NCBI GenBank assembly: GCA_964404035.1
Contig: CAYOIT010000004.1
Coordinates: 1 to 56,941 of the forward strand
Source: an uncultured Verrucomicrobiota bacterium
GTDB lineage: Bacteria > Verrucomicrobiota > Kiritimatiellia > CAIKKV01 > CAITUY01
Length of the DNA stretch: 56,941 nt
Direction: 5' to 3'
Positions 11,709 through 49,288 of this stretch are shown piece by piece. Positions within the stretch are counted from its first letter, which is position 1; each line of letters starts with the position of its first letter. The notes under the pieces were generated by a model, which was given only the letters and a program-made list of their open reading frames with translations, did no database searches and was not told the origin of the DNA. The position numbers and the translations under genes are program-made.

Positions 11709-14684
11709 CTAGGCCGGCTTGGCGGCGGAGGGTTTGTGGGGGGTCAGGACCCGACGAATCGCTTCCGCGAGCTGGCGCAGCACGATGGGCTTCATCAGGA
11801 TTTCCTTCACCCCGCCCTCGAGCAACTCCTCATCGGACAGCGACTTGCTGAAGCCCGTGCAGAGCAGAACGGGCAGATTGGGCCGCAGCTGGTGCGCTTC
11901 GCGGACCAGTTCCATGCCGGTCATGCCGGGCATGACCTGATCCGTGATCAGGATATCGAAACGGTCCGGGGCTTCACGGAGGAGGGCGATGGCGTCCTGG
12001 CTGCGCAGGCAGGCGACGGGGGTGTAGCCGAGGGTCTTCAGCATCTGGGCAACCATGTTGACGATATCCTTCTCGTCATCCACGAAGAGCACCCGCTCCG
12101 TCCCGCGTGGGACCGGTTCGTGCGAGACAGGCACTTTTTCGCCCGTTTTCTCCATGAGCGGTAGCACGACATGGAAAAGGGACCCCTTTCCGACTTCGCT
12201 CTCCACGGTGATGATGCCGTGCAAAGCGGTGACGATCCCGTGGGCGACGGCCAGCCCCATGCCCGTTCCCTCGCCGCTCTTCTTGGTGGTAAAGAAGGGC
12301 TCGAAGATCCGTTCCACTGTGGCGCGGTCCATCCCGATTCCCGTGTCCCTTACGGTCAGGTCCACGTAGGATCCCCGGCGCAGACGCGACAGCGGTCCCT
12401 TGGTTTTGCTGTCCAGCACGACCGGGTGCAAGCTGTACTCCAGGATGCCGCCGGTCCTTCTCATGGCGTGCAGGGCATTGGTGCCGAGGTTCATCAGTAC
12501 CTGGTGCAACTGGGTCGGATCGGCACGCACCATGTCGCGGTCCGTCTTGATGTCGGCGTGCAGCTGGATATCCGGCCTGACCGACCCGCGGAGCAGCGTC
12601 ATCACTTCCTCGATCACGGCGGCCAGCCGGAGCGGTCTTTCCTCGCCCTCGGTCTGCCGGCTGAAGGCCAGGATCTGCCGCACCAGGTCTTTGGCGCGGT
12701 GACTTGCCTTCAGCACCTCATCGAGATTGTGACGATTGGTGTCCTCGGGGGTGCAGCCAAACAGGGCCATTTCCGTGTAGCCGATGATCGGGGTCAGGAT
12801 GTTGTTGAAATCGTGGGCAATGCCGCCGGCCAGCGTTCCGATCGCTTCCATTTTGTGGGCCTGCCGCAGAAGCCGTTCGTTCTGCCGGAGCGCTTCCTCG
12901 GCGCGGCGGTGCTCGGTGATATCCTGCAACATGACCAGAAAGCCCTTGGGCTTGAAATCCCAGTCGAGCCCGAGGTTGGTGATCAGGATGTCGAAATGGC
13001 TTTTTCCTGAGCGTGTTGACTGGAGGACCAGTCCCGCCTCCTTGGCCAGGTCGAAATCCATGACGGCTTCATAGCGAGCCGTTCCGCCCTTCAACACCGT
13101 GTGCCCGACTTCCTCGCTCATCTCCGGCAACTGGGGAAGGGTCGGGGCCACAAAATGGCTGCGGTCGCTGACCCCGAACATTCCGAGCGCGGAGGGATTG
13201 ATGTCCATCAGCCGTTGGCCGATGTCATAGAGGGCGATCCCGATGGGCGAACGGGCAAAGAAGTCATGAAACCGCCGCTCGCTCTCTTTGAGCGCGAACT
13301 GGGTTTCACGCCGCCGGGTGATGTCATGGGCGCAACAGAACACGGCGGGACGTCCCTCGTGTTCGAGCACGCGCACGGTGATTTCCATGGGGATCTCGTT
13401 GCCCGACTTGGTCCGGTAGGTTCGTTCCGTGAAGACGTGAGGCGGAACCAGTTGATCGCCAGCGGCGGGCGGTTCACCGGGCGCCGCCGGGCTGCTCCCG
13501 CTTTTGAGGAGGGGGGCATAGGGCTGCTGGGATCCGCTGTCCGACATGACTTCGATGTCGCGTGGAGTAAGGGCCAGCAACTCGGTGCGGGTATAGCCCA
13601 ATCGGTGACAGGCCGTGCGATTGGCCTCGATGAACTTGGTGGGATGGTTTCTGGCATCCAGCCCATGTACCAGAATGATGTCCTCCGTGCTGTTCAGGAG
13701 TGAACGGTACCAGACCTTCTGCGACTCGGTGGTTTTCTCGCGGCTGGCGAGAGTGTCGTACGACTTGCGGAGCTCGTCATTTGCGGCATTCAGGCGCAAG
13801 GTGCGCGCGTCGACGGCCTGCCGAAGCCTGCGCACGGCAAAGCCGCCGCTGACGAGAAGGGCGATGAGGATCATCAGGCTGCCGAAAAACAGCGGCAGAT
13901 ATCTTCGGTCCAGCCGGGTCCAATATTCAAGCGAACGGTAGTACAGCGACTTCCGGTCGGCCTTCAGCACGGACTGCCAGTAATCGAGGCCCTCGATCAG
14001 TTTTCCGCTCCGGTTACGAGGCGAGGCAAAGCGGAATTCGATGGTGGGCGAGGTGATGGGGGAGGCGGTGACGCCGTAATCGCGGGCCGAGCGTTCCCCG
14101 AAGAATCGGTCAATCAGGCCGGTGTCGACGCTGCGACGGTCAAGGGACTCGAGAATCTGGGTGTAGGAATCCATCTCGATGAACTCGCACCGTATCCGGG
14201 CCTCTGTCAGCATGGCACGGAACTGCTCGTAATGGGGGTCGCCGCGCATCACGGCGATCGTCTTGCCGGCGAGGTCGCTGAGCGAGAAGACGAGGACGGA
14301 GTTGGCCACATACAGCTGCCCGCAGGAGGCCACCATCCCTTCGCGGGTGAAGTCCTGCCGGCCGATCCGGTCGCTCGGCCACGGCGCCGGCATCACCAGG
14401 TCCAGGGCGCCCTGTTCGAGTTTGATGGCGTTGTTGGCGGGAGTATCCGGAATGTAGCGAATCTGCCAGCCCTTCTGGGCGGCCACGTAGTTGAGAATAT
14501 CGGGCAGGAAGCCTTTGACGGCGGCCCCGCCGGAGCGGATGTAGACGAACGGCTCTTGCGAGGAGACGCCCACGTTGATGACGTTGGTCATGTCCGACGC
14601 CGCGCCCAGGAGCACCCAGGGGGCGAGCGCGAGCGAAAGGATGATGATCCTGATGTTCATAAACGATGGGTTGCGGCTCAGCAT
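11709..14684 (-). CDS. hybrid sensor histidine kinase with periplasmic solute-binding domain, PAS domains and C-terminal receiver
   Basis: Signal/TM segment, SBP_bac_3-like periplasmic domain, TM helix and PAS repeats. H-box (IAHDFNNILTPI), HATPase boxes (NLGTNALHAM, DTGIGM, GEGTGMGL) and receiver (VLFVDDE...ILITDQVMPGM). Start is ATG 14684, with ATG 14660 as an alternative. Confidence 0.85.
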   Translation of the reverse strand: MLSRNPSFMNIRIIILSLALAPWVLLGAASDMTNVINVGVSSQEPFVYIRSGGAAVKGFLPDILNYVAAQKGWQIRYIPDTPANNAIKLEQGALDLVMPAPWPSDRIGRQDFTREGMVASCGQLYVANSVLVFSLSDLAGKTIAVMRGDPHYEQFRAMLTEARIRCEFIEMDSYTQILESLDRRSVDTGLIDRFFGERSARDYGVTASPITSPTIEFRFASPRNRSGKLIEGLDYWQSVLKADRKSLYYRSLEYWTRLDRRYLPLFFGSLMILIALLVSGGFAVRRLRQAVDARTLRLNAANDELRKSYDTLASREKTTESQKVWYRSLLNSTEDIILVHGLDARNHPTKFIEANRTACHRLGYTRTELLALTPRDIEVMSDSGSQQPYAPLLKSGSSPAAPGEPPAAGDQLVPPHVFTERTYRTKSGNEIPMEITVRVLEHEGRPAVFCCAHDITRRRETQFALKESERRFHDFFARSPIGIALYDIGQRLMDINPSALGMFGVSDRSHFVAPTLPQLPEMSEEVGHTVLKGGTARYEAVMDFDLAKEAGLVLQSTRSGKSHFDILITNLGLDWDFKPKGFLVMLQDITEHRRAEEALRQNERLLRQAHKMEAIGTLAGGIAHDFNNILTPIIGYTEMALFGCTPEDTNRHNLDEVLKASHRAKDLVRQILAFSRQTEGEERPLRLAAVIEEVMTLLRGSVRPDIQLHADIKTDRDMVRADPTQLHQVLMNLGTNALHAMRRTGGILEYSLHPVVLDSKTKGPLSRLRRGSYVDLTVRDTGIGMDRATVERIFEPFFTTKKSGEGTGMGLAVAHGIVTALHGIITVESEVGKGSLFHVVLPLMEKTGEKVPVSHEPVPRGTERVLFVDDEKDIVNMVAQMLKTLGYTPVACLRSQDAIALLREAPDRFDILITDQVMPGMTGMELVREAHQLRPNLPVLLCTGFSKSLSDEELLEGGVKEILMKPIVLRQLAEAIRRVLTPHKPSAAKPA

Positions 14685-14712: not shown

Positions 14713-15522
14713 TCAAGACACCCCCTCCAACTGGGCGATCGCCCGCTTGGCGCAGACGGCATCGATCCGCCAGGTGCCTGCCACGTAGCCGGCCAGCAGG
14801 GCATTGTCGCAGACGGCGTTGATCAGGCGGGGAATGCCGCCGGAGTAACGATGGACGAGGTGAATGGCTTTGGGGTCGAACACAATCCGCCCGTTGCCGC
14901 CCGCCGTATTCAGACGGTGGGCCACATAGGCGCTCACCTCCTCTTCCTGGAGGGGGCCCAGGTGAAATCGCACCGTGATGCGCTGGCGCAACTGGCGGAG
15001 CGAGACCTGGGAGAGTTTTTCCTCGAGTTCAGGTTGTCCGACCATGACGATCTGAATCAACTTGTGACGGGTGGTCTCCAGGTTTGACAGCAGGCGGATC
15101 TGCTCCATGAGCTTCGGCGAGAGATTCTGGGCTTCATCAATCAGGAGGGCCACATTGGCCCCCGCGTCCATCTTCTGGAGCAGGAAGGCGTTGAGCGTCT
15201 CGATCAGCTTGAGCATATCCTTCCCGCCCGAATCGAGACCGAAGTCGCGCAGGATGGCACGCATCAGCTGGGCCTCGGTGAGGCACGGGTTCAGGATCAG
15301 GGCCGTCTGGACGCTCTGGCCGAGTTCGGCAAGGACGGCCCGGCACAGCGTGGTTTTGCCGGACCCCACTTCTCCCGTGAGCTGGATAAAGCCCTTTCGC
15401 TCCCGGATGCCGTACATCACATGATTGTAGGCCTCGCGGTGTTGACGCGAAAAGAAAAGATAGTGCGGGTCCGGCGTGATACTGAAAGGCGATTCCTTGA
15501 GTTTAAAGAACTCAAGATACAT
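14713..15522 (-). CDS. ExeA/GspA/MshM-like AAA+ (P-loop) ATPase
   Basis: N-terminal F.LKE.PF motif, Walker A (GEVGSGKTT), Walker B (ALLIDEAQ) and C-terminal GGIPRLIN motif, as in ExeA-type secretion-associated ATPases. Its ATG lies 1 nt after the encapsulin stop. Confidence 0.85.
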   Translation of the reverse strand: MYLEFFKLKESPFSITPDPHYLFFSRQHREAYNHVMYGIRERKGFIQLTGEVGSGKTTLCRAVLAELGQSVQTALILNPCLTEAQLMRAILRDFGLDSGGKDMLKLIETLNAFLLQKMDAGANVALLIDEAQNLSPKLMEQIRLLSNLETTRHKLIQIVMVGQPELEEKLSQVSLRQLRQRITVRFHLGPLQEEEVSAYVAHRLNTAGGNGRIVFDPKAIHLVHRYSGGIPRLINAVCDNALLAGYVAGTWRIDAVCAKRAIAQLEGVS

Positions 15523-15523
15523 T

Positions 15524-16336
15524 TCAGGCCTTGACCTTCAACTCGCATGCCGCCGCCGGTTCAAAGACGCTGAACGTGAAGGACTCGGTGAAGTACAGGT
15601 CCACATTGTCCTTGTCATGACTCTTGAACCCGATGGTCAGGTCCTGTCCGACCGTCATCTCGAAGTCTCCGCCGCGGCGTGACAGCACCAAGCCCCCGTG
15701 CAGGGCGGGACTCCAATGCACCCCCCCGGTGGCCAGGGCCTCGATCTGCTTGCGCAGCGGGTAAGCCTGCGGATCGCCGACCCGGACCAGGGCGTAGGGC
15801 TCGGTGCCCAGCACCAGGGCGTAAGGGCCGCCGACACCGGATTTCTCGAGCGCCAGAATGGCGTGCTCCACCGACTCGGTGAAGGCGTCGGGATCGGACG
15901 CCGAGAGCGGCACCGGCTTGTGGGACGACGCTTCGGCGATGCCCCTGATGCCGCCTTCCGCAAATCCGAGATAGAGGGCGGTTTCCTCAAAGATCGCGGT
16001 TTTCCGCGCCGCGCCGATCATCGCATCGAGGTTGGGGTTTCTGGCTCCGCGGGAAACGTTATCGAGTTCCCACAGCTTCAAGGTGAAATGGGTCCGGACC
16101 TCGATCAGGTTCTGGGTTTCGCGCCGGCCCCAGCTGACCCCCTTGACGGGTTCGCTGTCCCCCAGGTGGATGCTGCCCAGGTTGACCGCGGCCATGGTCC
16201 AGCCATGCGGTCCGCTGAAATCCACGAGGCCACGGGCGGACAGGTTGCCCTTCAGGATACGGGAGGCCTGCAGGTCGATCTCTTTCCAGCCTTCATCGGC
16301 GATCGGCGACAGTGAGCGTCTGAGTATATCAGTCAT
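15524..16336 (-). CDS. enc: family 1 encapsulin nanocompartment shell protein (Linocin_M18 / HK97 fold)
   Basis: End-to-end similarity, recalled by eye, to the Thermotoga maritima encapsulin (LIEVRTHFTLKLWELDN, SRRGGDFEMTVGQDLTIGF, YFTESFTF). 270 aa. AAGGAGAA RBS 6 nt upstream. Confidence 0.93.
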   Translation of the reverse strand: MTDILRRSLSPIADEGWKEIDLQASRILKGNLSARGLVDFSGPHGWTMAAVNLGSIHLGDSEPVKGVSWGRRETQNLIEVRTHFTLKLWELDNVSRGARNPNLDAMIGAARKTAIFEETALYLGFAEGGIRGIAEASSHKPVPLSASDPDAFTESVEHAILALEKSGVGGPYALVLGTEPYALVRVGDPQAYPLRKQIEALATGGVHWSPALHGGLVLSRRGGDFEMTVGQDLTIGFKSHDKDNVDLYFTESFTFSVFEPAAACELKVKA

Positions 16337-16372
16337 GGGATGTTCTCCTTTTTGTGGGGAATAAGAAGGGGT

Positions 16373-16714
16373 TCAGGTCTTCAGGTTGCGGATGCCCAGG
16401 TCGGCTTGGGTCTCGCCCGACGGGCCGGAGCCGGCTTCTATTTCAGTGATGGGTTTGGACGTAAAGAGATACGTCTTCAGTGCCGTGTCGACCGTCGGCA
16501 TGGTGCGGCGCAACCACTCGACCAGCATGGCAAAGTGCTCCATCTCCTCGTTGCGGTTGTGTTCGAGAATCGCCTTCAGCGCGGGATCTTCCGAGCGATC
16601 GAGACGCTGGTGGTAATAGTCAAAAGCCTCCAGTTCCTCCTGAAGACTGGCCAGGGCGCGGTGAATGTTCCGCGCCTCGGCGGAGAGGTCTGATTCATTA
16701 TAGGCGCTACTCAT
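16373..16714 (-). CDS. encapsulated ferritin-like cargo protein (EncFtn) with C-terminal targeting peptide
   Basis: Ferritin-like E-x6-Y (EELEAFDYY) and ExxH (NEEMEH) motifs. C-terminal LGIRNLK resembles the family-1 cargo-loading peptide. AGGAGG RBS before ATG 16714. Lies directly upstream of the shell gene. Confidence 0.85.
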   Translation of the reverse strand: MSSAYNESDLSAEARNIHRALASLQEELEAFDYYHQRLDRSEDPALKAILEHNRNEEMEHFAMLVEWLRRTMPTVDTALKTYLFTSKPITEIEAGSGPSGETQADLGIRNLKT

Positions 16715-16744
16715 TGACGTCCTCCTGCTTGTCGGGCGAAACGG

Positions 16745-16773
16745 ATCATACCGCTTCCCTATTCGAGTGCCAT
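16745..16773 (-). promoter_or_regulatory. candidate sigma70-type promoter for the encFtn-encapsulin operon
   Basis: On the minus strand: ATGGCA, 17-nt spacer, TATGAT, about 30 nt upstream of the encFtn ATG. Pattern match only. Confidence 0.3.
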
Positions 16774-16879
16774 ATTGCCACAAACCTAGCCGCTCACAAG
16801 CCTGATGTTGGGGCCGGAAGCCTCCCGGACGTGGCACGATTCGGGCCCGCCGGCAGCGCGGCCGGGTCCGGCGGCAGGA

Positions 16880-17752
16880 TCAGCCCAGGGTGTCGCCGGA
16901 ACGGGACCACGGTCTGGCTTCCGTTCGGATTTTTCCATCAACTTCCGGCCACACCTTCAACAGAATGGCGGGATGTGGCGACTCCTGGGTGGAGGCGGGG
17001 GGCGGCGCCAGCCGGGCAAGGAGCGACGCCGGATCATCGGCCAGGGTCGTCAGCAGGGTGCAGACGTCGGTCAGGAACAACTGCCGCAGACTCGACAGGT
17101 CGTCGGTGACTTTGACGTCGCCCAGATGGACCACGGACGGCTCAAGCAGAAAAGCGAGCTTCAGGGCCTCTTCCATGGACGCCACGTCCGTCTGGATTTC
17201 GGTCTGGACCACCAGGGAATTGTGGTGGGCCAGAAGAAACGAAAGGGTCGGTTCGACGATATAGAGCACTTGCTTGCGGGTGTTGTTGATCTCGTTCAGC
17301 AGGGCATAGGCGACCTGACTGTTGGCGCTCTGGCTGGAGCCGAAGATCAACACCGCCCGGTGCCGGCGTGTGCCGATCGCCTCTGCAATCGCCTGCACCT
17401 GCGCCGGCTCACTGCAGATTGCCCCGATGGTCGGCACTTCAAAGGGAATGCGAATGATGCGCAGGACCCGGCTTCCCCGTTGGGTGAAGTGGCAGATACG
17501 CAGGCGCCCGACGTCGCGGACCCCGACGCACAGGATGCCCGCCTGGGAGAGATGGGTTTCCTTCTTGCCCGAACTGCGCATCACCACGCCCGCCAGGGTT
17601 TCCTCCACGTCCGCCGCCGAAAAAACCTTGCCGCTCACGACGGTGCAGACTCCGTTGCGACGGCTCAAAGGCGGTGCATTGGGCGCAATGAGGAGTTCCC
17701 GCAGCTGTTTGTCGTGCGCCAGCATCTCCAGAATTTCAAACCACACATTCAT
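16880..17752 (-). CDS. PilT/GspE-family protein with degenerate ATPase motifs (predicted pseudo-ATPase)
   Basis: Collinear with PilT across the N-terminal and core domains. However, Walker A reads GSSQSANS instead of GPTGSGKS, the Asp box reads IVEPTLS, Walker B reads VVHLGDVKV, and the His box is lost. Confidence 0.75.
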   Translation of the reverse strand: MNVWFEILEMLAHDKQLRELLIAPNAPPLSRRNGVCTVVSGKVFSAADVEETLAGVVMRSSGKKETHLSQAGILCVGVRDVGRLRICHFTQRGSRVLRIIRIPFEVPTIGAICSEPAQVQAIAEAIGTRRHRAVLIFGSSQSANSQVAYALLNEINNTRKQVLYIVEPTLSFLLAHHNSLVVQTEIQTDVASMEEALKLAFLLEPSVVHLGDVKVTDDLSSLRQLFLTDVCTLLTTLADDPASLLARLAPPPASTQESPHPAILLKVWPEVDGKIRTEARPWSRSGDTLG

Positions 17753-18050: not shown

Positions 18051-18713
18051 ATGGAAAAGCCCTTTGATCCTGTGGAGGCGCGAGTGCTGGCCTGCCTGGT
18101 CGAGAAATCGATCACCACGCCGGAATACTATCCGCTCACCCTGAATGCGTTGACGGCGGCGTGCAACCAGAAGTCGAACCGCGACCCGATGATGCAGGTG
18201 ACCGATACGGAGGTGGTCCGCGCCCTGGACAGCCTGCGCGATCGCAAGCTGGCATGGTCGGTGACGCTGGCCGGCAGCCGGGCCCCCAGGTACCGGCACA
18301 GCCTTCAGGATGTCATTCCCCTGTCGCCGGCCCATACGGCCGTCTTGTGCGAACTCCTGCTGAGGGGGCCCCAGACGCTTGGCGAACTGCGCACCCATGC
18401 CAGCCGCATGGTCGAGATCCCCGATACGGCGGCCGTCCAAGGCATTCTTCAGGACTTGTCCAGCCGGTCCGACGGACCCCTGGTGGTGGTGTTGCCGCGC
18501 CAGCCGGGCCGGCGGGAAGATCGCTATGCCCATCTTCTTTGCGGCGCTCCGCCGGTCGAGCCTGAAGCCTCCTCACCGGTCGAACCCGCGCGCCTGGCCG
18601 TCTTGGCCGAGAACGAGCGCCTGGCCGCGCTCGAGGCCAAGGTGGCGTTGCTGCAGGATGAACTGGCGCGGCTCAACGCCCGTTTCGGGGATTTCGAGCG
18701 ACAGTTTCAATAA
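18051..18713 (+). CDS. yceH: YceH family protein (DUF480/UPF0502)
   Basis: Strong collinearity with E. coli YceH (EARVLACLVEKSITTPEYYPLTLNALTAACNQKSNRDP, LLLRGPQTLGELR, REDRYAHLL, C-terminal coiled coil). Confidence 0.85.
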   Translation: MEKPFDPVEARVLACLVEKSITTPEYYPLTLNALTAACNQKSNRDPMMQVTDTEVVRALDSLRDRKLAWSVTLAGSRAPRYRHSLQDVIPLSPAHTAVLCELLLRGPQTLGELRTHASRMVEIPDTAAVQGILQDLSSRSDGPLVVVLPRQPGRREDRYAHLLCGAPPVEPEASSPVEPARLAVLAENERLAALEAKVALLQDELARLNARFGDFERQFQ

Positions 18714-18722
18714 GCGCGCACC

Positions 18723-19283
18723 TTATTCGGTGCCGAAGATGATCTTGCCCTGCTTGCCGGCGGCCTTGATGACCGCCCAGATCTCATCCGTCTTTGGCGA
18801 AGTGGTCAGGAAACGCGTTCCGTCGGCCATCTTGATCGCCACCTGACGGTTGTGCTGCTGCATGACGGATTGCACGTCGCCTTGTGCGATGATCCGTTTC
18901 GCATCCTGCCACGAAATCATATTGTCGGGCCCTTTTGGGATCTGAGACAGGTTCAGTTTGGCGGCCATCAGAAACCCTCCGTCCACGATGGAGCAACTGA
19001 GATTGGCGCTCTGCGCCACCCATTTGAGCGCCTGATCCACCGTTGCGTTGGTCAGCGCAACGGTGATGGCGGGGGCATTGGTTGGCAGATCGACCTTCGT
19101 GACGGCGATGCCGCTGAGGAGGGCGATCTGGTCCAGGACGTCCTCCACGGGCGAGTCCCTCACCGTGAGGGTGATCCTGGTCTCCTGCGCCTTCTTGGCA
19201 ATCTCCGCCGGGTCCGGCGCGGCCAGCCCGGCCATGGCCCAAAGGGTCATCACCAGCATGACGCTGAGGCGTTGTCGTTTCAT
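18723..19283 (-). CDS. secreted hypothetical protein
   Basis: Signal peptide (LSVMLVMTLWAMAGLAAP) and high GC3. Last gene of the minus-strand DUF2339 cluster. No family recognised. Confidence 0.55.
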   Translation of the reverse strand: MKRQRLSVMLVMTLWAMAGLAAPDPAEIAKKAQETRITLTVRDSPVEDVLDQIALLSGIAVTKVDLPTNAPAITVALTNATVDQALKWVAQSANLSCSIVDGGFLMAAKLNLSQIPKGPDNMISWQDAKRIIAQGDVQSVMQQHNRQVAIKMADGTRFLTTSPKTDEIWAVIKAAGKQGKIIFGTE

Positions 19284-19607: not shown

Positions 19608-20966
19608 TTACGTGAATTCAATCTTTCCGGCCATGCGGAAGACGACCGCGAGCAGGATTCCCACCATCACCACCAAGGCCCAGACCATCGCCTTCTTGCT
19701 GTAGCAGGCCCAGGACCTCCCGGTAACCTGGCCTGGCGCCCGTTCCACGGTTCCCTGGCTCCACAGGTCGGCCGAACCGGCCGGCACACCGGCCAGGACC
19801 GAACCGACATCGTATTGTGGCACCGCCACGTCCTCGCCTCCCCAACAGAGCCGGTAGGACTGGCCGCTCTTCGGAAAAAACAAAATCTCGTGAAGTGTCC
19901 GGCGCACCCGGAGGCCCTTTACGGTCAGAGGCGGATTATCCTGATTGTGCAGGGTCAGCCGGTAAGTGCGGTACCGGGGCTCAGCCGGAAGAACCATCAC
20001 CAGGTGCTCTTCCTGGAATTTGCCGATACGAATCCTGGAAAGCCGGTCGGTCGCGACGGGCCGCCAGGTTTCCGGAGCCTCGCTGGCGCGTCCCTCAAGA
20101 ACCGCCTGCCGGCTGAAGTTGGCCTCATCGGTCAGGAGCGTGAGCGCGCACAACGGTTCGCGTTGGACGGTGAAGGTGATCAGGGTCTCCTTCATCCGGG
20201 CGTCCTGGGCGACGGACCACGTCCCGACGGCGAAGTCCTCGGTCTCGCCGGCACCGGTATCCACCCTCTGGCGGCGCTCAAGAAAGGTCAGGCGATCGAT
20301 GCGGAAGGGCTCCTTGCGGAAGGAGGTGGCCTCGATTTCGTTGGACGCCTGCTGGCCGCGCGTCTGACGGATGATCTCCACGAGGGGGGAATCCTTCTTC
20401 TCGGTGATGTTGGAGATCTTGATCCGGTAGGTGGTGTCGTCTCCATCGGCCAACGGAATCCGGTGACGCCTGACATCGGCATAGCGCGAGTAATCGTAAA
20501 GGGGTTCTTCCCTGGCCAATTCGGTCCAGTGCTCCCCGTCACGGCTACCCTCGACCGTGACGAGTTTCTCAAAGTTCCGGACGTTGGAGGCAAACTCCAG
20601 GGCTGCCGGGCGCGGAAGCTGCGGATCCCGCGTGACGATCAGTTCGAGCCTGTTATCCGGTTGCTCCCGCAGCGATTGGATGGTGAGCGGCGCCGGGAAA
20701 GGGACCCACTGATCCACGGTTCGCACGGGGACTTTGCGTCGGACGAGAAAGGGCGTTTCGCCACTGGAGGTGTCGAAAAGACGGACGTTGGCCATCTGGT
20801 CGTCCACGGCGTCGTACCATTCGCCGTCCGGCACGACGGCTCCGATTTCGCTGTGGGCTGTGGCCGGCGCCGAAAGAGGACGGGAGAACGGGAAGTTGGA
20901 GGGCACCAGGGTGGCCTGGGTCAGGGAGGTGGCGAGCCAAAGGGCCGGGAAGAGCAGAGCCTTCAT
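19608..20966 (-). CDS. DUF3999-like exported protein with C-terminal TM anchor
   Basis: 452 aa with a signal peptide and a single C-terminal TM helix. 4-nt overlap with the upstream DUF2339-like gene. The family name is recalled from the typical size and the known pairing, not from an alignment. Confidence 0.6.
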   Translation of the reverse strand: MKALLFPALWLATSLTQATLVPSNFPFSRPLSAPATAHSEIGAVVPDGEWYDAVDDQMANVRLFDTSSGETPFLVRRKVPVRTVDQWVPFPAPLTIQSLREQPDNRLELIVTRDPQLPRPAALEFASNVRNFEKLVTVEGSRDGEHWTELAREEPLYDYSRYADVRRHRIPLADGDDTTYRIKISNITEKKDSPLVEIIRQTRGQQASNEIEATSFRKEPFRIDRLTFLERRQRVDTGAGETEDFAVGTWSVAQDARMKETLITFTVQREPLCALTLLTDEANFSRQAVLEGRASEAPETWRPVATDRLSRIRIGKFQEEHLVMVLPAEPRYRTYRLTLHNQDNPPLTVKGLRVRRTLHEILFFPKSGQSYRLCWGGEDVAVPQYDVGSVLAGVPAGSADLWSQGTVERAPGQVTGRSWACYSKKAMVWALVVMVGILLAVVFRMAGKIEFT

Positions 20967-23431
20967 TCCGATTCTCCTTTCGTGAAGCGTTTGCTGGCGC
21001 GCAGGTAGGCAAAGGATCCCAGCAGAAGCAGGACCCCAATGACCATGAGCGCGAGGACGCGGTAAGCCGTCGGCATATCGGCCAGGTCGACGAACAGCAC
21101 CTTGGCCACCACCACCGTGAAGAGGACCAGGCCGGAGAGCCGGAGGGGCCGAAGATTACGCCAGATCCCGCCGGCCAGCAGGGCGAGGGCGAACAGGGTC
21201 CAGAGCACCGAGATACCGCCGGACTGGAACTCGTGCAGTTTCCAGTGGAGCAGGCTGTTGAGCTCCAGCGTCAGGTAAAGCCAGAGCAGGCTGATGGTGG
21301 TGTAGCCGAACGCGGCGGGCAGGAAGCTTCGGTCTTCCTTTCGGGGGAGCAGCGCGGCAATGCCGGTCAGAAGCAGGAGCACGGCCAGGAAATCGAACCA
21401 GCGCATCAGGGCCAAGAACGGGGTATAGGTCATATCGAAGAACCATCGTTCGTTCAGGTGCCAGCCGGGAATATCCCAGAACAGCGTCTTGGCCACGGCA
21501 CCGACGGCGAAGAAAACGAGACCCGCGCGAAAGGCCACGGTGGGCGCCGCCCGGTAAAGGAGCAGGAATCCCAGCGCCATGCCGCACCAGAGTGTGGTCA
21601 GCACGGCCGGCCGCCAGGCGAGCGCATAGCCGAACAGGGCGTGGCATTCGCTGTGCAGATAGAGAAAAAAGAGCGCCACGGCGGCCCAGAAGAAGAGGCG
21701 GTGGGTGAGGGAGGCCGGGGCCACATCCGCGGTATCCGGGAGAGGCGCTTCACTTGAAGCGGGCGCGCCCATCGTTTGGCGGAGTTCCAGGAAGAAGGCC
21801 GCGGCGATCGAGCCGATCGCGGTTCCGAAGGTCCAGAGCCGGTTCAGCAAGGCGCTCCCATAGGCGGTCAGGGTGGTGGCGCCGGCCGCATTCAGGTCGA
21901 TGCGCGGGAACTCAAAGACCGCCAGCCGGAAGAGCGTGAGCCCGTAGACGGCGTAGCTGACCTGACGCAGGAAGGCGCTCTGGAGGCGACGCCCGAGCCA
22001 CAGGAACATGAAGGCCTGAAGCGCCCAGGCAATGGTCAGGGACTCCTTCTCCATCAGGAGCGGCATGGTGAGTGTGGTGTAGAACCCCGCCAGCGAAATC
22101 AGGGCGATCAGGAGGGGCCGGTCGGCGAGGCGGCGGCGCAGGAAGACCGCCACATGCAGGCAGTAATAGACGGCCACGGCGAGTGTCATCAGGGCGGGAT
22201 AGGGGCGGCCGGCCGTGTCGCGGATCACGTCATAGGCGGCGAAGGAAAAGACCGCGGCGTTCAGGACGAGGTGGACGATCTCCAGCAGGGTGGCCGGGGC
22301 GTCGCGCCGCAGGTTATAGAGCAGGACAAGGGTCGAGTGGGCGACAAAGACCAGCGCCAGGAAGGTCAGGGCCACGGGGAAATCCCCGGGAGTGTAGCAG
22401 GCCGGCGAGGCCAGGAAATAGATCGTATAGGTGAACAGAAAGCTAAGGTAGTTCAGCAGGCGCCACTGGCGCAGGTGGCCGATTCCGAGCACGCCGAGAT
22501 TCAGGAGGAGAAGATAGCTGTAGAGGGCCAGGAAGCGGGGTTCGTTCGTGTGTAACAGGAGGGGCGTACAGAAACCGCCGATGATGCCGAAGATGGCCAC
22601 CAGCATGGAGTTGGCTGAGAGGGCGAGGACGCCCGCCGCCACGGTGACGAGGATCATCAAACCGAACACCACCGGCTGGGAATCCACGAGATGGTACAAG
22701 GGACCGAGGGCATACATGCTGAAGTACAGGGTGGCCAGCCCGCCGCCGACGAAGCCCTGCCCGAGAACATTCCAGCGGCGTCCCAGGAGACACATGCCGC
22801 CCGTGAGCATGCCGAGGCCGAAGGTGACGCTCATGGCCACGCGCGCGGTGGGACCGAGCAAACCGTGATCCATGGACCATTTCAAGAAATAGCCGACTCC
22901 TGCAACCAGAGCCACAATGCCGACCCGCATCAGCCAGGTGGTGCCCACCGCATACTCCATGGAGACGCCTTTGGGCCGGTATTCCTCGCCCACGAGGATC
23001 CATTGCCAGATCCGGTTGAGGATATCCCCTGCGGTCTGAGCCAGTTTGGAGGGGGCACGCGGGGGAACCTCGACGGAGGGGGTGGCGGCCTGGCGGCCTT
23101 CAAGCGGCCGCGGAAGAGGCGGGGCCGAAGGGGGAAGGGGAGGCGGAGCGGAGAGCGACTCCATCAGGCGCGAAAGGGGAACCGAGGCGGTTGAGGCGGC
23201 GGGAGCGGCGGCCTCCCGTCGGGTGACGGCTTCGGGTTCGGCGCGCGGGACTTTCGCGGCACCGGGGGCTGGCAACGGGGTGGTCTGCGTCAGCTTGCGA
23301 AGCTCGCTCTTGAGCTCGATCAGGCGGTCCTCAATATCCGGCAGGCGCCGCATGGCGCGTTTGAGGTTGTTCAGCTTGATGAGAATGAGAACGGCGAGAA
23401 TGGAGAGGACCACCAAGACCACTTCGTCCAT
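20963..23431 (-). CDS. DUF2339-like polytopic membrane protein
   Basis: N-terminal TM helix plus coiled coil (IEDRLIELKSELRKL), a Pro/Ala linker, then about 20 or more predicted TM helices. This architecture is typical of DUF2339. Confidence 0.65.
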   Translation of the reverse strand: MDEVVLVVLSILAVLILIKLNNLKRAMRRLPDIEDRLIELKSELRKLTQTTPLPAPGAAKVPRAEPEAVTRREAAAPAASTASVPLSRLMESLSAPPPLPPSAPPLPRPLEGRQAATPSVEVPPRAPSKLAQTAGDILNRIWQWILVGEEYRPKGVSMEYAVGTTWLMRVGIVALVAGVGYFLKWSMDHGLLGPTARVAMSVTFGLGMLTGGMCLLGRRWNVLGQGFVGGGLATLYFSMYALGPLYHLVDSQPVVFGLMILVTVAAGVLALSANSMLVAIFGIIGGFCTPLLLHTNEPRFLALYSYLLLLNLGVLGIGHLRQWRLLNYLSFLFTYTIYFLASPACYTPGDFPVALTFLALVFVAHSTLVLLYNLRRDAPATLLEIVHLVLNAAVFSFAAYDVIRDTAGRPYPALMTLAVAVYYCLHVAVFLRRRLADRPLLIALISLAGFYTTLTMPLLMEKESLTIAWALQAFMFLWLGRRLQSAFLRQVSYAVYGLTLFRLAVFEFPRIDLNAAGATTLTAYGSALLNRLWTFGTAIGSIAAAFFLELRQTMGAPASSEAPLPDTADVAPASLTHRLFFWAAVALFFLYLHSECHALFGYALAWRPAVLTTLWCGMALGFLLLYRAAPTVAFRAGLVFFAVGAVAKTLFWDIPGWHLNERWFFDMTYTPFLALMRWFDFLAVLLLLTGIAALLPRKEDRSFLPAAFGYTTISLLWLYLTLELNSLLHWKLHEFQSGGISVLWTLFALALLAGGIWRNLRPLRLSGLVLFTVVVAKVLFVDLADMPTAYRVLALMVIGVLLLLGSFAYLRASKRFTKGESE

Positions 23432-46305: not shown

Positions 46306-47463
46306 TCAGGGCAGAAACTCTTTCTTGCGCAATTTCTCCGGCAAGTAGTGTTCGAGAACGAAATTCAGCCCGTGTTTGGCGAAGGCCTGTTGTTCGATAC
46401 GCACGCCCATCTTAAGCATCTGGTTGAGCGTGTTCTGCCATTCCTTGTGGTGGAGAATGAAGGGATCGTTCTTCAGGGCATCTTTGGCCCGTTTGATATC
46501 CGCCTCTTCCAGGGGATGGGTGGCATCCTCCAGCTTGTAATCGATGATGTCCTGCGGCGTGACGCCTAGATATCTCGCCTGTGGCACGCAGAAGTAACGA
46601 TTGATATGGGCCGCCTGCCCGGAGCCCACCTTCAAGGTGCGGTAGATGTTGCAGTAGCCGTAGGGGTCGCCGTCGGTGAACACGAGCACGGGCAGCCGCT
46701 GGTCATCCGCCAGACGGCGGATAAACCGCCGGCAGGCCCGCGTCGGCACGCCGCTCATGGACACCAGGATGCAGTTGGCCGTTTCGTAAAACACATGATG
46801 CACCAAGCGCTGGAAGAGCGAGGCCGTCTCGATCACGAGGATCAGCTTGGCTTTGGATTCGAACTGCAGGTGCTCCACGCGGGAGGGAATGCTCCAGGCG
46901 CCGCTGCCCAGCTTGGCACAGTTGACCTTGATAACCTCGCCGGTAACGGGATTCCTGTCGATGACCGTGAGGGGGCCGGTCACGTCGCCACCGCGTTCCT
47001 CGGGAATGTAGCCGAGTTGCTCCCGGTTCACGCCGAGCATGGCTTCCATGTCGTCGAGAAGCGCATCGCTCTCCGGCTGCTCGTCAAACCGGCATTCGCC
47101 CCAGCTCTTGCTGTTGTAGTAGATCTCGCGCTTGCCCGCGATGTCGTCCTTGTCGAGCAGGTCCTTCTTGGTCGTGGCCATCAGCCGGACCGACTGCGCG
47201 AACGTTTTGACGGTGTTGTAGGTCAGGGTGCGGGTCGCCACTTTGCCGCGGATCTCGAAATGGCCGCGTTTCAGGTCGTAGCGCACATTCGACAGGGCGC
47301 GCACGGGGAATCGCATGCTCGGCTTCCGGTGCTTCTTGACAATATCATCGTGAATTTCGCGACTGATCTTGACGATCCGGGCACCGGCCTCCTGCTTGTC
47401 GATCACCTTCATCGTGGTGCCGGTGTCTTCGACGGCTGTTTTCGTTTTGCTCTTTGTCGCCAT
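46306..47463 (-). CDS. top6A: DNA topoisomerase VI subunit A (Spo11/Top6A)
   Basis: 5Y-CAP region with the catalytic-tyrosine motif (REIYY). Toprim acidic motifs (LVIETASLF and VFTDGDPYG) and a C-terminal IEQQA motif. Confidence 0.93.
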   Translation of the reverse strand: MATKSKTKTAVEDTGTTMKVIDKQEAGARIVKISREIHDDIVKKHRKPSMRFPVRALSNVRYDLKRGHFEIRGKVATRTLTYNTVKTFAQSVRLMATTKKDLLDKDDIAGKREIYYNSKSWGECRFDEQPESDALLDDMEAMLGVNREQLGYIPEERGGDVTGPLTVIDRNPVTGEVIKVNCAKLGSGAWSIPSRVEHLQFESKAKLILVIETASLFQRLVHHVFYETANCILVSMSGVPTRACRRFIRRLADDQRLPVLVFTDGDPYGYCNIYRTLKVGSGQAAHINRYFCVPQARYLGVTPQDIIDYKLEDATHPLEEADIKRAKDALKNDPFILHHKEWQNTLNQMLKMGVRIEQQAFAKHGLNFVLEHYLPEKLRKKEFLP

Positions 47464-49173
47464 TTACGTCTCCAAATGCGTGCGTTCCAGGAGGTCGTTC
47501 AGATTGCTCACGACGCGAGCCTCATCACGGTCGGACAAATCGAGGATGTCCTTCAGCCCGAGCGCCAGATGGGGAATGTACATGGCGATATAGCTGCGTT
47601 TTCGATCCTGTTCGGCCAGCCGGTGCCGCTTGTGCAGGAACACCGAGAGGCGGCGGCCGCATTCCTGGATCCCGAACGTGACTTCGCGGATGATCTCGGG
47701 ATAGTGCGCAATGGCTTCCTTGCTCTCACTGGTGAAGGGCACCCAGACGCTGGCCATGTGGACCATGATGACGACCGGCCCCAGCGGCAGTGAGCCGCGG
47801 GGTTGCGCGAGCCCGTAGCTTTTCCAGTTCACCCCTGTGATGGCTTTGGTGATGGCACAGGCGCCCGCCATGTGCAGCAGGGGAACCCGGTTGGCGAACC
47901 GCATCACGCGAGCCGGCTCGTCAGCGCCCAGGTCGGCCTGGTCTCCGGGTTTCACGTAGGCCAGTCCCACTTCGACCTGGAACGGGTTTCCGCGATAGAC
48001 GGTGGGCGGCCGGGTCACGGCCGTGAGAAAGTCGGCGCCCATTTCCTTCTTCAGGCCGGTCATCAGTTGTTCTTCGCCAATGGGCGACAGGCAGTCGGTC
48101 GGCGGCCGCATCAGCTTCGTGTCATTGATCGCCTTGAACAGCGCCTCGCTTTCGCGATGAGCGATCCGCGTGGGATTGGCCCGCGGGTCCAGGCCGGCCC
48201 GCTCGCAGATGTCCAGGGCCACTTTGCCGCTCACCCGCGAAAAATCCTGGGACAGTGCCGCCCGCAGGGTCCGGGCGGGGGTATCCTTCATCATCTGCAT
48301 CAGGAGGCCCAGTTCCACGCCGTGGGGGTGGGGCTTGATCTCCACGGGGGGTGGCGGCAGGTGGGTGACGCCCCGAAAGAAGGTGGTCCAGGCCACGTCG
48401 GCCGCCGGCTGATCCCCGGCCTCGCCGGCGCTTCGGGCGGCCTCCTCGGGCGGTCCCTCCTTCTTCAGCAGCTGGACCCGGAAGTGGAGCTGAAGGTGCG
48501 GATTCACGATCGCGCACTGCTTTAGGTACTCGTCCACCGAGCGCGTGCCGCGAACATAGGCCGCCTCCATCTCGATCTCGACGCAGGTGCCGTGGCCGGC
48601 GATCACCGTCTCCCCCGGCGTGCCGTCGGCATGGACCGGATGAAACTCCGGATGCCATTCAATCATGACATCCTTGAGAATCGTCGGCGCGTTCTTGCGC
48701 GTGTCGATCTGCACCTCGATGTGGTGTGCCTGTTTGGCGCCCGCGGGACGCGACAGGATTTTGGTGGCATGTCCTGTGGTCAACTGACCGTACATGCCCG
48801 CGGCGCTGATGCCGATGCCCTGCTGGCCGCGCGACATCCGTAGACGGTGGAACTTGGAGCCATAGAGCAGTTTGGCGAAGATCTTCGGAATCTGGGCGCG
48901 AACGATGCCCGGGCCGTTATCGGTGATCGCCACGCGAAAGCGATTCGCGGCGATCTGCTGGATCTCCACGCTGATCTCGGGGACGATGCCTGCTTCTTCG
49001 CAGGCGTCGAGCGCATTGTCGACCGCTTCTTTGACCGTGGTCAACAGAGCCTTGCGGGGGTTGTCGAATCCCAGCAGGTGCCGGTTCTTGAGGAAGAACT
49101 CGGAAACCGAGATGTCTCTCTGTTTCCGCGCCATCGTTTCGGCCGTCTCGGCCGCAAGGGTTCGCTTAGCCAT
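47464..49173 (-). CDS. top6B: DNA topoisomerase VI subunit B (GHKL ATPase plus transducer)
   Basis: The N-terminus is collinear with archaeal Top6B (SVSEFFLKNRHLLGFDNPRKALLTTVKEAVDNALDA). Bergerat-fold G boxes (DNGPGI, SRGQQGIGISA). Its stop abuts the top6A ATG. Confidence 0.92.
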   Translation of the reverse strand: MAKRTLAAETAETMARKQRDISVSEFFLKNRHLLGFDNPRKALLTTVKEAVDNALDACEEAGIVPEISVEIQQIAANRFRVAITDNGPGIVRAQIPKIFAKLLYGSKFHRLRMSRGQQGIGISAAGMYGQLTTGHATKILSRPAGAKQAHHIEVQIDTRKNAPTILKDVMIEWHPEFHPVHADGTPGETVIAGHGTCVEIEMEAAYVRGTRSVDEYLKQCAIVNPHLQLHFRVQLLKKEGPPEEAARSAGEAGDQPAADVAWTTFFRGVTHLPPPPVEIKPHPHGVELGLLMQMMKDTPARTLRAALSQDFSRVSGKVALDICERAGLDPRANPTRIAHRESEALFKAINDTKLMRPPTDCLSPIGEEQLMTGLKKEMGADFLTAVTRPPTVYRGNPFQVEVGLAYVKPGDQADLGADEPARVMRFANRVPLLHMAGACAITKAITGVNWKSYGLAQPRGSLPLGPVVIMVHMASVWVPFTSESKEAIAHYPEIIREVTFGIQECGRRLSVFLHKRHRLAEQDRKRSYIAMYIPHLALGLKDILDLSDRDEARVVSNLNDLLERTHLET

Positions 49174-49288
49174 GGGAGTAGTGAGCCGTAGTTTGATCGG
49201 AATTTCAAGACAAACCCTGCAGCGGCGCAACGAACCCGGCCACTTTCCCCACGTGGGTCCACAATCTGTGGGGATCAAAGCGGAGAAG

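Follow-up and report, generated by a model that had tools for sequence, protein, structure and literature searches.

An EncFtn encapsulin cassette adjoining a short GspA/MshM-type ATPase gene and a hybrid histidine kinase gene in an uncultured Verrucomicrobiota bacterium

Family-1 encapsulin shells self-assemble and load their cargo without ATP, and the packaging of encapsulated ferritin (EncFtn), the oxidation of Fe2+ by this cargo and the mineralisation of iron inside the shell are established for the family. A two-gene cassette encoding EncFtn and an encapsulin shell, for which these activities are predicted from sequence, was analyzed in a 56,941-nt stretch of contig CAYOIT010000004.1 from an uncultured Verrucomicrobiota bacterium (the whole stretch is hereafter termed the window); it is followed by the genes for a short AAA+ ATPase and a hybrid sensor histidine kinase, and all four genes are co-directional on the minus strand, from 16714 to 11709 (Table 1). 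As in the EncFtn/family-1 systems of Haliangium ochraceum, Rhodospirillum rubrum and Thermotoga maritima, the cargo gene is located directly upstream of the shell gene; the E/Y/E/H ferroxidase residues are in register with those of R. rubrum and H. ochraceum EncFtn, an LGIxxLK-type targeting peptide is located at the C-terminus behind a flexible linker, and the closest solved relatives of the predicted shell, 7ODW from H. ochraceum and 3DKT from T. maritima, are T=1 shells. Unlike the classical EncFtn systems, the host is an uncultured bacterium of the Planctomycetes–Verrucomicrobia–Chlamydiae (PVC) type, and unlike the standalone classical cassettes, this one appears to head an ATPase–kinase operon.

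The second group of described systems with which the locus has to be compared is that of GspA/ExeA of Aeromonas and Vibrio, the type II secretion system (T2SS) secretin-assembly ATPase, which works with GspB/ExeB (PMC4098917, PMC9239104); canonical GspA of these genera carries a C-terminal transmembrane segment and a periplasmic PF01471 region (PMC9239104). An initial annotation of the window had remarked that such an ATPase is not a described encapsulin accessory, in agreement with the largest survey of encapsulins, the main text of which contains neither "ATPase" nor "AAA" (PMC8346489). In the literature searched, nothing relevant was found on encapsulin combined with AAA or ATPase, and no paper was found that combined encapsulin with Kiritimatiell*. 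The EncFtn–encapsulin–ATPase triad can therefore be regarded as undescribed, an AAA+ ATPase not being among the accessories in the survey (PMC8346489), yet judged by its distribution it is a lineage-restricted synteny rather than a new type of system. The comparisons described below make it likely that a classical EncFtn encapsulin heads a pre-existing ATPase–kinase operon, and that the ATPase gene adjoins the cassette without encoding a part of the compartment.

All four genes matched their families far above chance in hidden Markov model searches, and the family assignments, coordinates and gene spacing given in the initial annotation were found to be correct, as were the sequence motifs that it had listed. 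The encFtn gene is preceded by an AGGAGG ribosome-binding site 7 nt 5′ of its ATG, and its product matched PF22277 (E 9.6e-35) and, barely above the cutoff of 125 bits, TIGR04535 (125.5 bits). The ferroxidase residues E27/Y34 (E-x6-Y) and E57/H60 (ExxH) are all present; in the alignment with R. rubrum EncFtn (residues 10–96 against 15–101) we take them to be the equivalents of E32/Y39/E62/H65. Relatives in the Protein Data Bank (PDB) are NE0167 and the EncFtn proteins from H. ochraceum and R. rubrum (E 2e-27 to 1e-23). The protein ends in the tail DLGIRNLKT, located after a Gly/Ser linker, in which DLGIRNLK is the predicted C-terminal targeting peptide for the shell; the motif (D/T)LG(I/V)xxLK is kept across 10 EncFtn relatives, and the Gly/Ala linker before it varies. 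The shell gene begins after a gap of 36 nt, and this cargo-before-shell order is common to all relatives examined. Its product matched PF04454 with an E-value of 7.4e-78 and scored 266 bits against NF041155, the equivalog model for family 1 (cutoff 100), which bears out the earlier description of the pair as a classical EncFtn plus family-1 shell. The best PDB matches were 7ODW (E 4e-65) and 3DKT (E 8e-56), with T=3 EncA shells matching at E about 5e-12 only, and the window shell is thus probably of the T=1 type. In a separate observation, three database records (P0152, P0173 and P0192) on short JGI metagenome contigs were found to be single polypeptides of 380–390 aa that combine an EncFtn domain and a degenerate targeting-peptide region with a family-1 shell (64–68% identity to the window shell); these may be natural fusions of a bacterial type or run-through gene calls. 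All Flp-fusion encapsulins have been stated to be archaeal (PMC8346489).

Table 1. Features of the study region in the window.
Feature	Coordinates	Strand	Basis
encFtn, encapsulated ferritin cargo, 113 aa	16373..16714	-	PF22277, TIGR04535, PDB relatives
Family-1 encapsulin shell, 270 aa	15524..16336	-	PF04454, NF041155, PDB relatives
Junction of shell stop and ATPase start, TGA-A-ATG	15520..15526	-	Direct reading of the sequence
Short GspA/ExeA/MshM-type AAA+ ATPase, 269 aa	14713..15522	-	AAA_22; TIGR03015 below cutoff
Hybrid sensor histidine kinase	11709..14684	-	Pfam: SBP_bac_3 (periplasmic), PAS, HisKA, HATPase_c, REC
Promoter-like block AACATCAGGCTTGTGAGCGGCTAGGTTTGTGGCAATAT	16772..16809	-	Conserved in L022 and L010; putative promoter function

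The shell stop codon and the ATG of the ATPase gene are 1 nt apart, a junction that allows translational coupling. The kinase gene begins 28 nt after the ATPase gene, as annotated, if the ATG at 14684 is used, but an alternative start, the ATG at 14660, opens the signal-peptide-like sequence MNIRIIILSLALAP. A survey of the neighbourhoods of related genes, in which approximately 6 kb on each side was obtained per relative locus, showed that the EncFtn–encapsulin–ATPase triad occurs at nine distinct loci, all from uncultured bacteria of the PVC type, and that its surroundings are of six kinds upstream and of three kinds downstream (Table 2); the ATPase therefore does adjoin encapsulin in relatives, and the view that the two are never adjacent elsewhere, which the initial annotation had named as grounds for regarding the arrangement as a chance juxtaposition, is set aside. 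EncFtn encapsulins are thereby extended to uncultured bacteria of the PVC type, from which the sampling is uneven, many of the loci coming from few lake metagenomes. The shells of the triad loci are 66–79% identical to that of the window, and the ATPases, in the eight loci for which DNA is available, are 78–90% identical. The tight coupling of shell and ATPase that had been proposed holds for the window but is not universal: the 1-nt junction is found in six of the nine loci, and the other three have longer spacers (18, 98 and 118 nt). The kinase gene lies downstream of the ATPase gene in six of the eight triad loci with readable downstream sequence.

Table 2. Gene contexts of the nine triad loci.
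Locus	Upstream	Downstream	Shell–ATPase spacer (nt)
Window	Degenerate PilT-like gene	Kinase	1
L001 (Verrucomicrobiota metagenome-assembled genome)	Aminotransferase, small open reading frames	Kinase	98
L010	LysM protein	Kinase	1
L011-13/L024	PreP-type peptidase	MmeI-type restriction enzyme	18
L014/15	AhpC and ABC transporter	Kinase	118
L040	RecN-like and three weakly PilM/GspL-like genes	Contig end	1
L104	RecN-like and three weakly PilM/GspL-like genes	Kinase	1
L105-107	RecN-like and three weakly PilM/GspL-like genes	SLT transglycosylase	1
P0142 contigs (gene table only)	SMC_N and three genes, one weakly PilM_2-like	Kinase	1

A metagenome scan with the window ATPase as the query identified 80 loci, for which the neighbours were mapped by tblastn and trees were built. 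The ATPase family splits into two groups, one with 59–70% and the other with 75–93% identity to the window protein. The latter group has no GspB-like neighbour, and its ATPase genes are usually followed by the kinase gene and then by a conserved core encoding an amidohydrolase, a 201-aa protein and PgsA. Within this kinase-linked clade of 26 distinct loci, the cassette is present in nine and absent from 17, the ATPases of the latter being 75–91% identical to that of the window. No other gene accompanies the ATPase gene as constantly in the clade as that of the hybrid kinase: of the 17 cassette-less loci, 11 have it downstream and only L033 clearly lacks it, the downstream sequence of the rest being too short to tell. 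Upstream of the ATPase, the cassette-less loci carry unrelated genes, such as those for a CapD-like protein, DnaN, a methyltransferase, a transposase, TauE or a DUF885 protein. In six or seven loci of a sister subclade (L029, L030, L032, L041, L042 and L108/L109), the DUF885 gene (592–607 aa; preceded in L108 by genes for M48 and MA-type peptidases) is joined to the ATPase gene by a stop codon, 1 nt and an ATG. Because DUF885 shares a junction identical to that of the shell, the tight junction appears to be a habit of the 5′ end of the ATPase gene and not a signature of the shell. One contig of the set (Ga0073936_10000039, 151,764 bp; L026/L027) carries the same ATPase–kinase locus near both ends in inverted orientation, which is probably a palindromic assembly artefact.

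Two of the cassette-less loci are nested among the cassette-bearing ones in the ATPase tree: L022 groups with the window and L010 (99% bootstrap support), and L033 groups with L001 and L014 (77%), which suggests repeated loss or exchange of the cassette beside an ATPase that was retained. The comparison with L022 provides the sharpest evidence. This locus encodes an ATPase with 91% identity to that of the window, and a promoter-like block located approximately 60 nt before the ATPase gene is identical to the window block at 32 of 38 positions; homology restarts at CCTGA-N-ATG, leading into the ATPase gene (44 of 48 positions), and approximately 55 nt stand in place of the approximately 1.24-kb cassette of the window. 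Since both flanks are common to L022 and the window, the cassette behaves as a clean presence/absence indel, and since the ATPase and the upstream region exist in L022 without it, the ATPase persists independently of encapsulin. The window and L010, compared with L022, constitute a natural presence/absence series for the contribution of the cassette.

The more distant ATPases, of 59–70% identity, are found in Lentisphaerota- and Kiritimatiellia-type records, and the genes of most of them are followed by a GspB-like gene that overlaps or lies a few nucleotides away. These GspB-like partners (255–270 aa) carry an N-terminal MSLIQEALRR motif, a transmembrane segment and a region rich in Pro and Ala, and end in a small domain; one of them gave a weak T2SSB match under the cutoff (E 7.8e-5). 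Genes for MshEN, T2SSE and T2SSF proteins were identified close by in three of the examined loci. The arrangement matches the GspA–GspB pair described previously (PMC9239104, PMC4098917). A tblastn search with the GspB-like partners of three sister loci, which as low-complexity, fast-diverging proteins are queries of limited reach, identified no such gene, either in the window or at the kinase-linked loci. Outside the lineage, none of the shells has the ATPase gene beside it. A shell with 73% identity to that of the window (P0141) has no adjacent ATPase or kinase gene and is directly followed by a convergent gene for a 518-aa protein, which corresponds in length and position to the window amidohydrolase; behind a shell with 69% identity (P0151) lies a gene for Cu/Zn superoxide dismutase (Sod_Cu); and seven more distant shell loci (L002–L008) lack the ATPase, with EncFtn beside the shell in five of the seven.

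The ATPase itself matched AAA_22 (PF13401; E 2.5e-27), with only AAA-type matches in Pfam, and the intact Walker A (GEVGSGKTT, from residue 50) and Walker B (LLIDEAQ, from residue 126) motifs previously reported were verified. Its close homologues are named "general secretion pathway protein A" by database sources, and its best NCBIfam match was to TIGR03015, the ATPase model of the XrtA/PEP-CTERM system, over positions 1–264 of the 269-position model (E 7.8e-91), with a score of 304.2 bits that falls below the cutoff of 324.5. The likeness to the TIGR03015 system extends over the full length of the protein; unlike that system, no exosortase, PEP-CTERM or exopolysaccharide genes were identified in a Pfam survey of the called open reading frames of at least 100 aa in the window, and a polysaccharide-synthesis gene was found upstream of the ATPase only in L023. 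The protein is similar to GspA/ExeA in being a cytoplasmic AAA_22-type ATPase and differs from it in its length and in the absence of a transmembrane segment and of the PF01471 peptidoglycan-binding region, neither of which was found in the Pfam matches or in an AlphaFold2 model, and of an adjacent gspB gene or T2SS cluster. Neither gspKLM-like genes nor a T2SS cluster were found in the 57-kb window, and no secretin gene was seen there, the only related gene encoding a 186-aa STN-domain protein (18723–19283). The ATPase resembles the short Alteromonas forms of GspA (PMC9239104). It is classified here, on its domain matches, as a short GspA/MshM-type ATPase that fails canonical GspA membership and falls just below the TIGR03015 cutoff.

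A sequence search of the PDB gave only a P-loop-level match (Dda helicase, E 0.0027), and the ATPase was therefore modelled and searched by fold. The model (predicted local distance difference test score 91, predicted template modelling score 0.83) consists of an AAA+ core and a lid and nothing further. The top Foldseek matches were ORC/Cdc6, MuB and TnsC (probability 1.00; query-normalised TM-scores 0.63–0.72), followed by RuvB and RuvBL (0.52–0.64), and on this model the nearest folds are those of switch- or loader-type AAA+ proteins, not unfoldases. The likeness to ORC/Cdc6, MuB and TnsC covers the AAA+ core and lid; it is one of fold, not of membership, given 14–20% identity and no winged-helix or DNA-binding extension. 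No targeting peptide was found on the ATPase, the C-terminus of which (AIAQLEG..) is without an LGIxxLK-type sequence and is alike in the cassette-linked, DUF885-linked and GspB-linked versions. Their TIGR03015 scores are also alike (304, 306 and 301 bits, respectively), and no sequence signature distinguishing the ATPases of cassette-bearing loci was found.

The reading favoured here includes the expression of the cassette together with the ATPase and kinase, and two lines of doubt have to be weighed against it, the first of which concerns transcription. A consensus scan identified a sole sigma-70-like site in the region (ATGGCA-17-TATGAT, 16773..16745), which is located upstream of encFtn, and no terminator-like or further promoter-like site from encFtn to the end of the kinase gene. 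The start of this site is overlapped by the 38-nt promoter-like block (AACATCAGGCTTGTGAGCGG...GTGGCAATAT), which also precedes encFtn in L010; a sigma-54 reading of the TGGCAATATGGCA block was rejected by eye, as its GG-to-GC spacing is 9 rather than 12. Because L022 carries the shared block directly before the ATPase gene, the block presumably serves the ATPase, which supports co-transcription of encFtn and the shell gene with the ATPase and kinase genes; the four genes of the window are probably transcribed together. The alternative is adjacency without co-expression: the ATPase–kinase pair would have a promoter of its own, within the shell gene or behind it, and the cassette would be an independent unit that happens to lie upstream. 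Subclade B argues for such an arrangement: its shell–ATPase spacing is 98–118 nt (L001, L014), and the 40 nt 5′ of the ATPase gene are conserved in these two loci as well as in cassette-less L033, as would be expected of a private leader or promoter, so that the subclade B ATPase may have its own leader. The L014 spacer also contains a GC-rich hairpin (-58.9 kcal/mol, z -1.67), but the L001 spacer has no stable fold (z +1.35), and folding of the L011 spacer is unconvincing as a terminator. Given the 1-nt spacing in the window, its lack of internal signals and the position of the block in L022, separate expression of the two units is considered unlikely. As an observation apart from this question, four cassette-less loci (L028, L034, L035 and L038), which differ in the genes further upstream, share a conserved CTGGCTATTTC-(9–10 nt)-TATGGCAGTCT motif located 30–60 nt 5′ of the ATPase start, which may be a promoter or operator.

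The second doubt concerns function. The ATPase, possibly with the kinase, could be a lineage-specific encapsulin accessory, acting as a nucleotide-dependent switch or scaffold for assembly, envelope placement or iron release and held at a fixed ratio to the shell by translational coupling. Several observations weigh on this side and against the ATPase being a mere neighbour. The triad has been held through flanks that vary on both sides, which could reflect selection for linkage; the 1-nt junction recurs in most triad loci; encapsulin and ATPase genes remain joined where the kinase has been lost, which has occurred twice (L011-13 and L105-107); and no such accessory is described in the survey (PMC8346489). 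In addition, the ATPases of the clade are without the GspB-like neighbour that is otherwise usual, and the cassette-bearing lineages form a basal grade within the clade, so that gain of the encapsulin and loss of GspB may coincide. The deep nodes of the ATPase tree are weak (11–75% support), and therefore no claim is made as to a single basal or a later gain of the cassette. An action of the ATPase on the compartment, as the initial annotation had proposed it (in assembly, loading, release or targeting), is nevertheless left unsupported by the comparisons: the 17 close orthologues without the cassette, including L022 with its 91% identical ATPase and the same promoter-like block; the identical junction with DUF885; the GspB and T2SS or type IV pilus partners of the distant orthologues; the 73% identical shell that lacks both ATPase and kinase; the absence of a distinguishing signature or targeting peptide in the cassette-linked ATPases; and the loader/initiator-like AAA+ fold without an extra domain. 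Nor would ATP be needed by a family-1 shell for its assembly and loading. The accessory role is thus quite improbable. More specifically, it is likewise improbable that a GspA-type ATPase left without an adjacent GspB was recruited as the first ATP-dependent encapsulin accessory, for instance for envelope docking or positioning or for the gating of iron release, in a fixed ratio with the shell and in one operon with the kinase. An ATPase that acted on the compartment would be the first energy-consuming accessory known for an encapsulin, and would open the question of how stored iron is released or compartments are positioned.

The ATPase is thus more probably a neighbour of a classical encapsulin than an accessory to it. 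It is an orthologue of a PVC-wide ATPase of the secretion or pilus assembly type; ATPase and encapsulin probably do not depend on each other, and a physical interaction between the two is probably lacking. The two-gene cassette would be flanked on one side by a promoter region and on the other by the pre-existing operon for the short GspA/MshM-type ATPase and the hybrid kinase, with which it would probably be co-expressed; relatives of the ATPase would act in secretin or pilus machinery together with a GspB-like membrane protein, a partner that is not adjacent in the kinase-linked clade. EncFtn decamers would be loaded via DLGIRNLK into the self-assembling, probably T=1 shell, where the loaded EncFtn would oxidise Fe2+ and iron would mineralise. 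Read in this way, the locus is a worked example of genes that come to share a tight and recurrent junction because a cassette has settled in front of an operon that was already there.

Several further features were observed in the triad loci and in the window. In L040, L104 and L105-107, a conserved divergent gene trio is located beside the RecN-like gene on the opposite strand, approximately 0.3–3 kb upstream of encFtn; it encodes proteins of 165–233 aa with a hydrophobic N-terminal segment, of 449–455 aa with weak PilM/GspL matches (E 4e-4 to 1e-2), and of 170–176 aa with a transmembrane segment, and may be what is left of an assembly-platform module, with the cassette lying between it and the GspA-like ATPase that it faces. 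In the window, a 290-aa PilT-like protein is encoded directly 5′ of the promoter-like region of encFtn (16880–17752, minus strand); it matched TIGR01420 far under the cutoff (E 4.4e-18), has GSSQSANS at the Walker A position and is probably catalytically dead. This open reading frame has no counterpart in any related locus and is the only pilus- or secretion-like gene of the window. Beyond the gene for the STN-domain protein and a DUF480 gene (18051–18713), genes for a DUF3999 protein (452 aa) and a DUF2339 membrane protein (822 aa) overlap by 4 nt (19608–23431, minus strand), the pair lying downstream of the other two. Topoisomerase VI is mainly archaeal and eukaryotic and occurs sporadically among bacteria; adjoining genes for its subunits A (PF21180, PF04406, PF20768) and B (PF09239, HATPase_c) are located at 46306–49278 on the minus strand of the window, in what is apparently a PVC-type bacterial chromosome.

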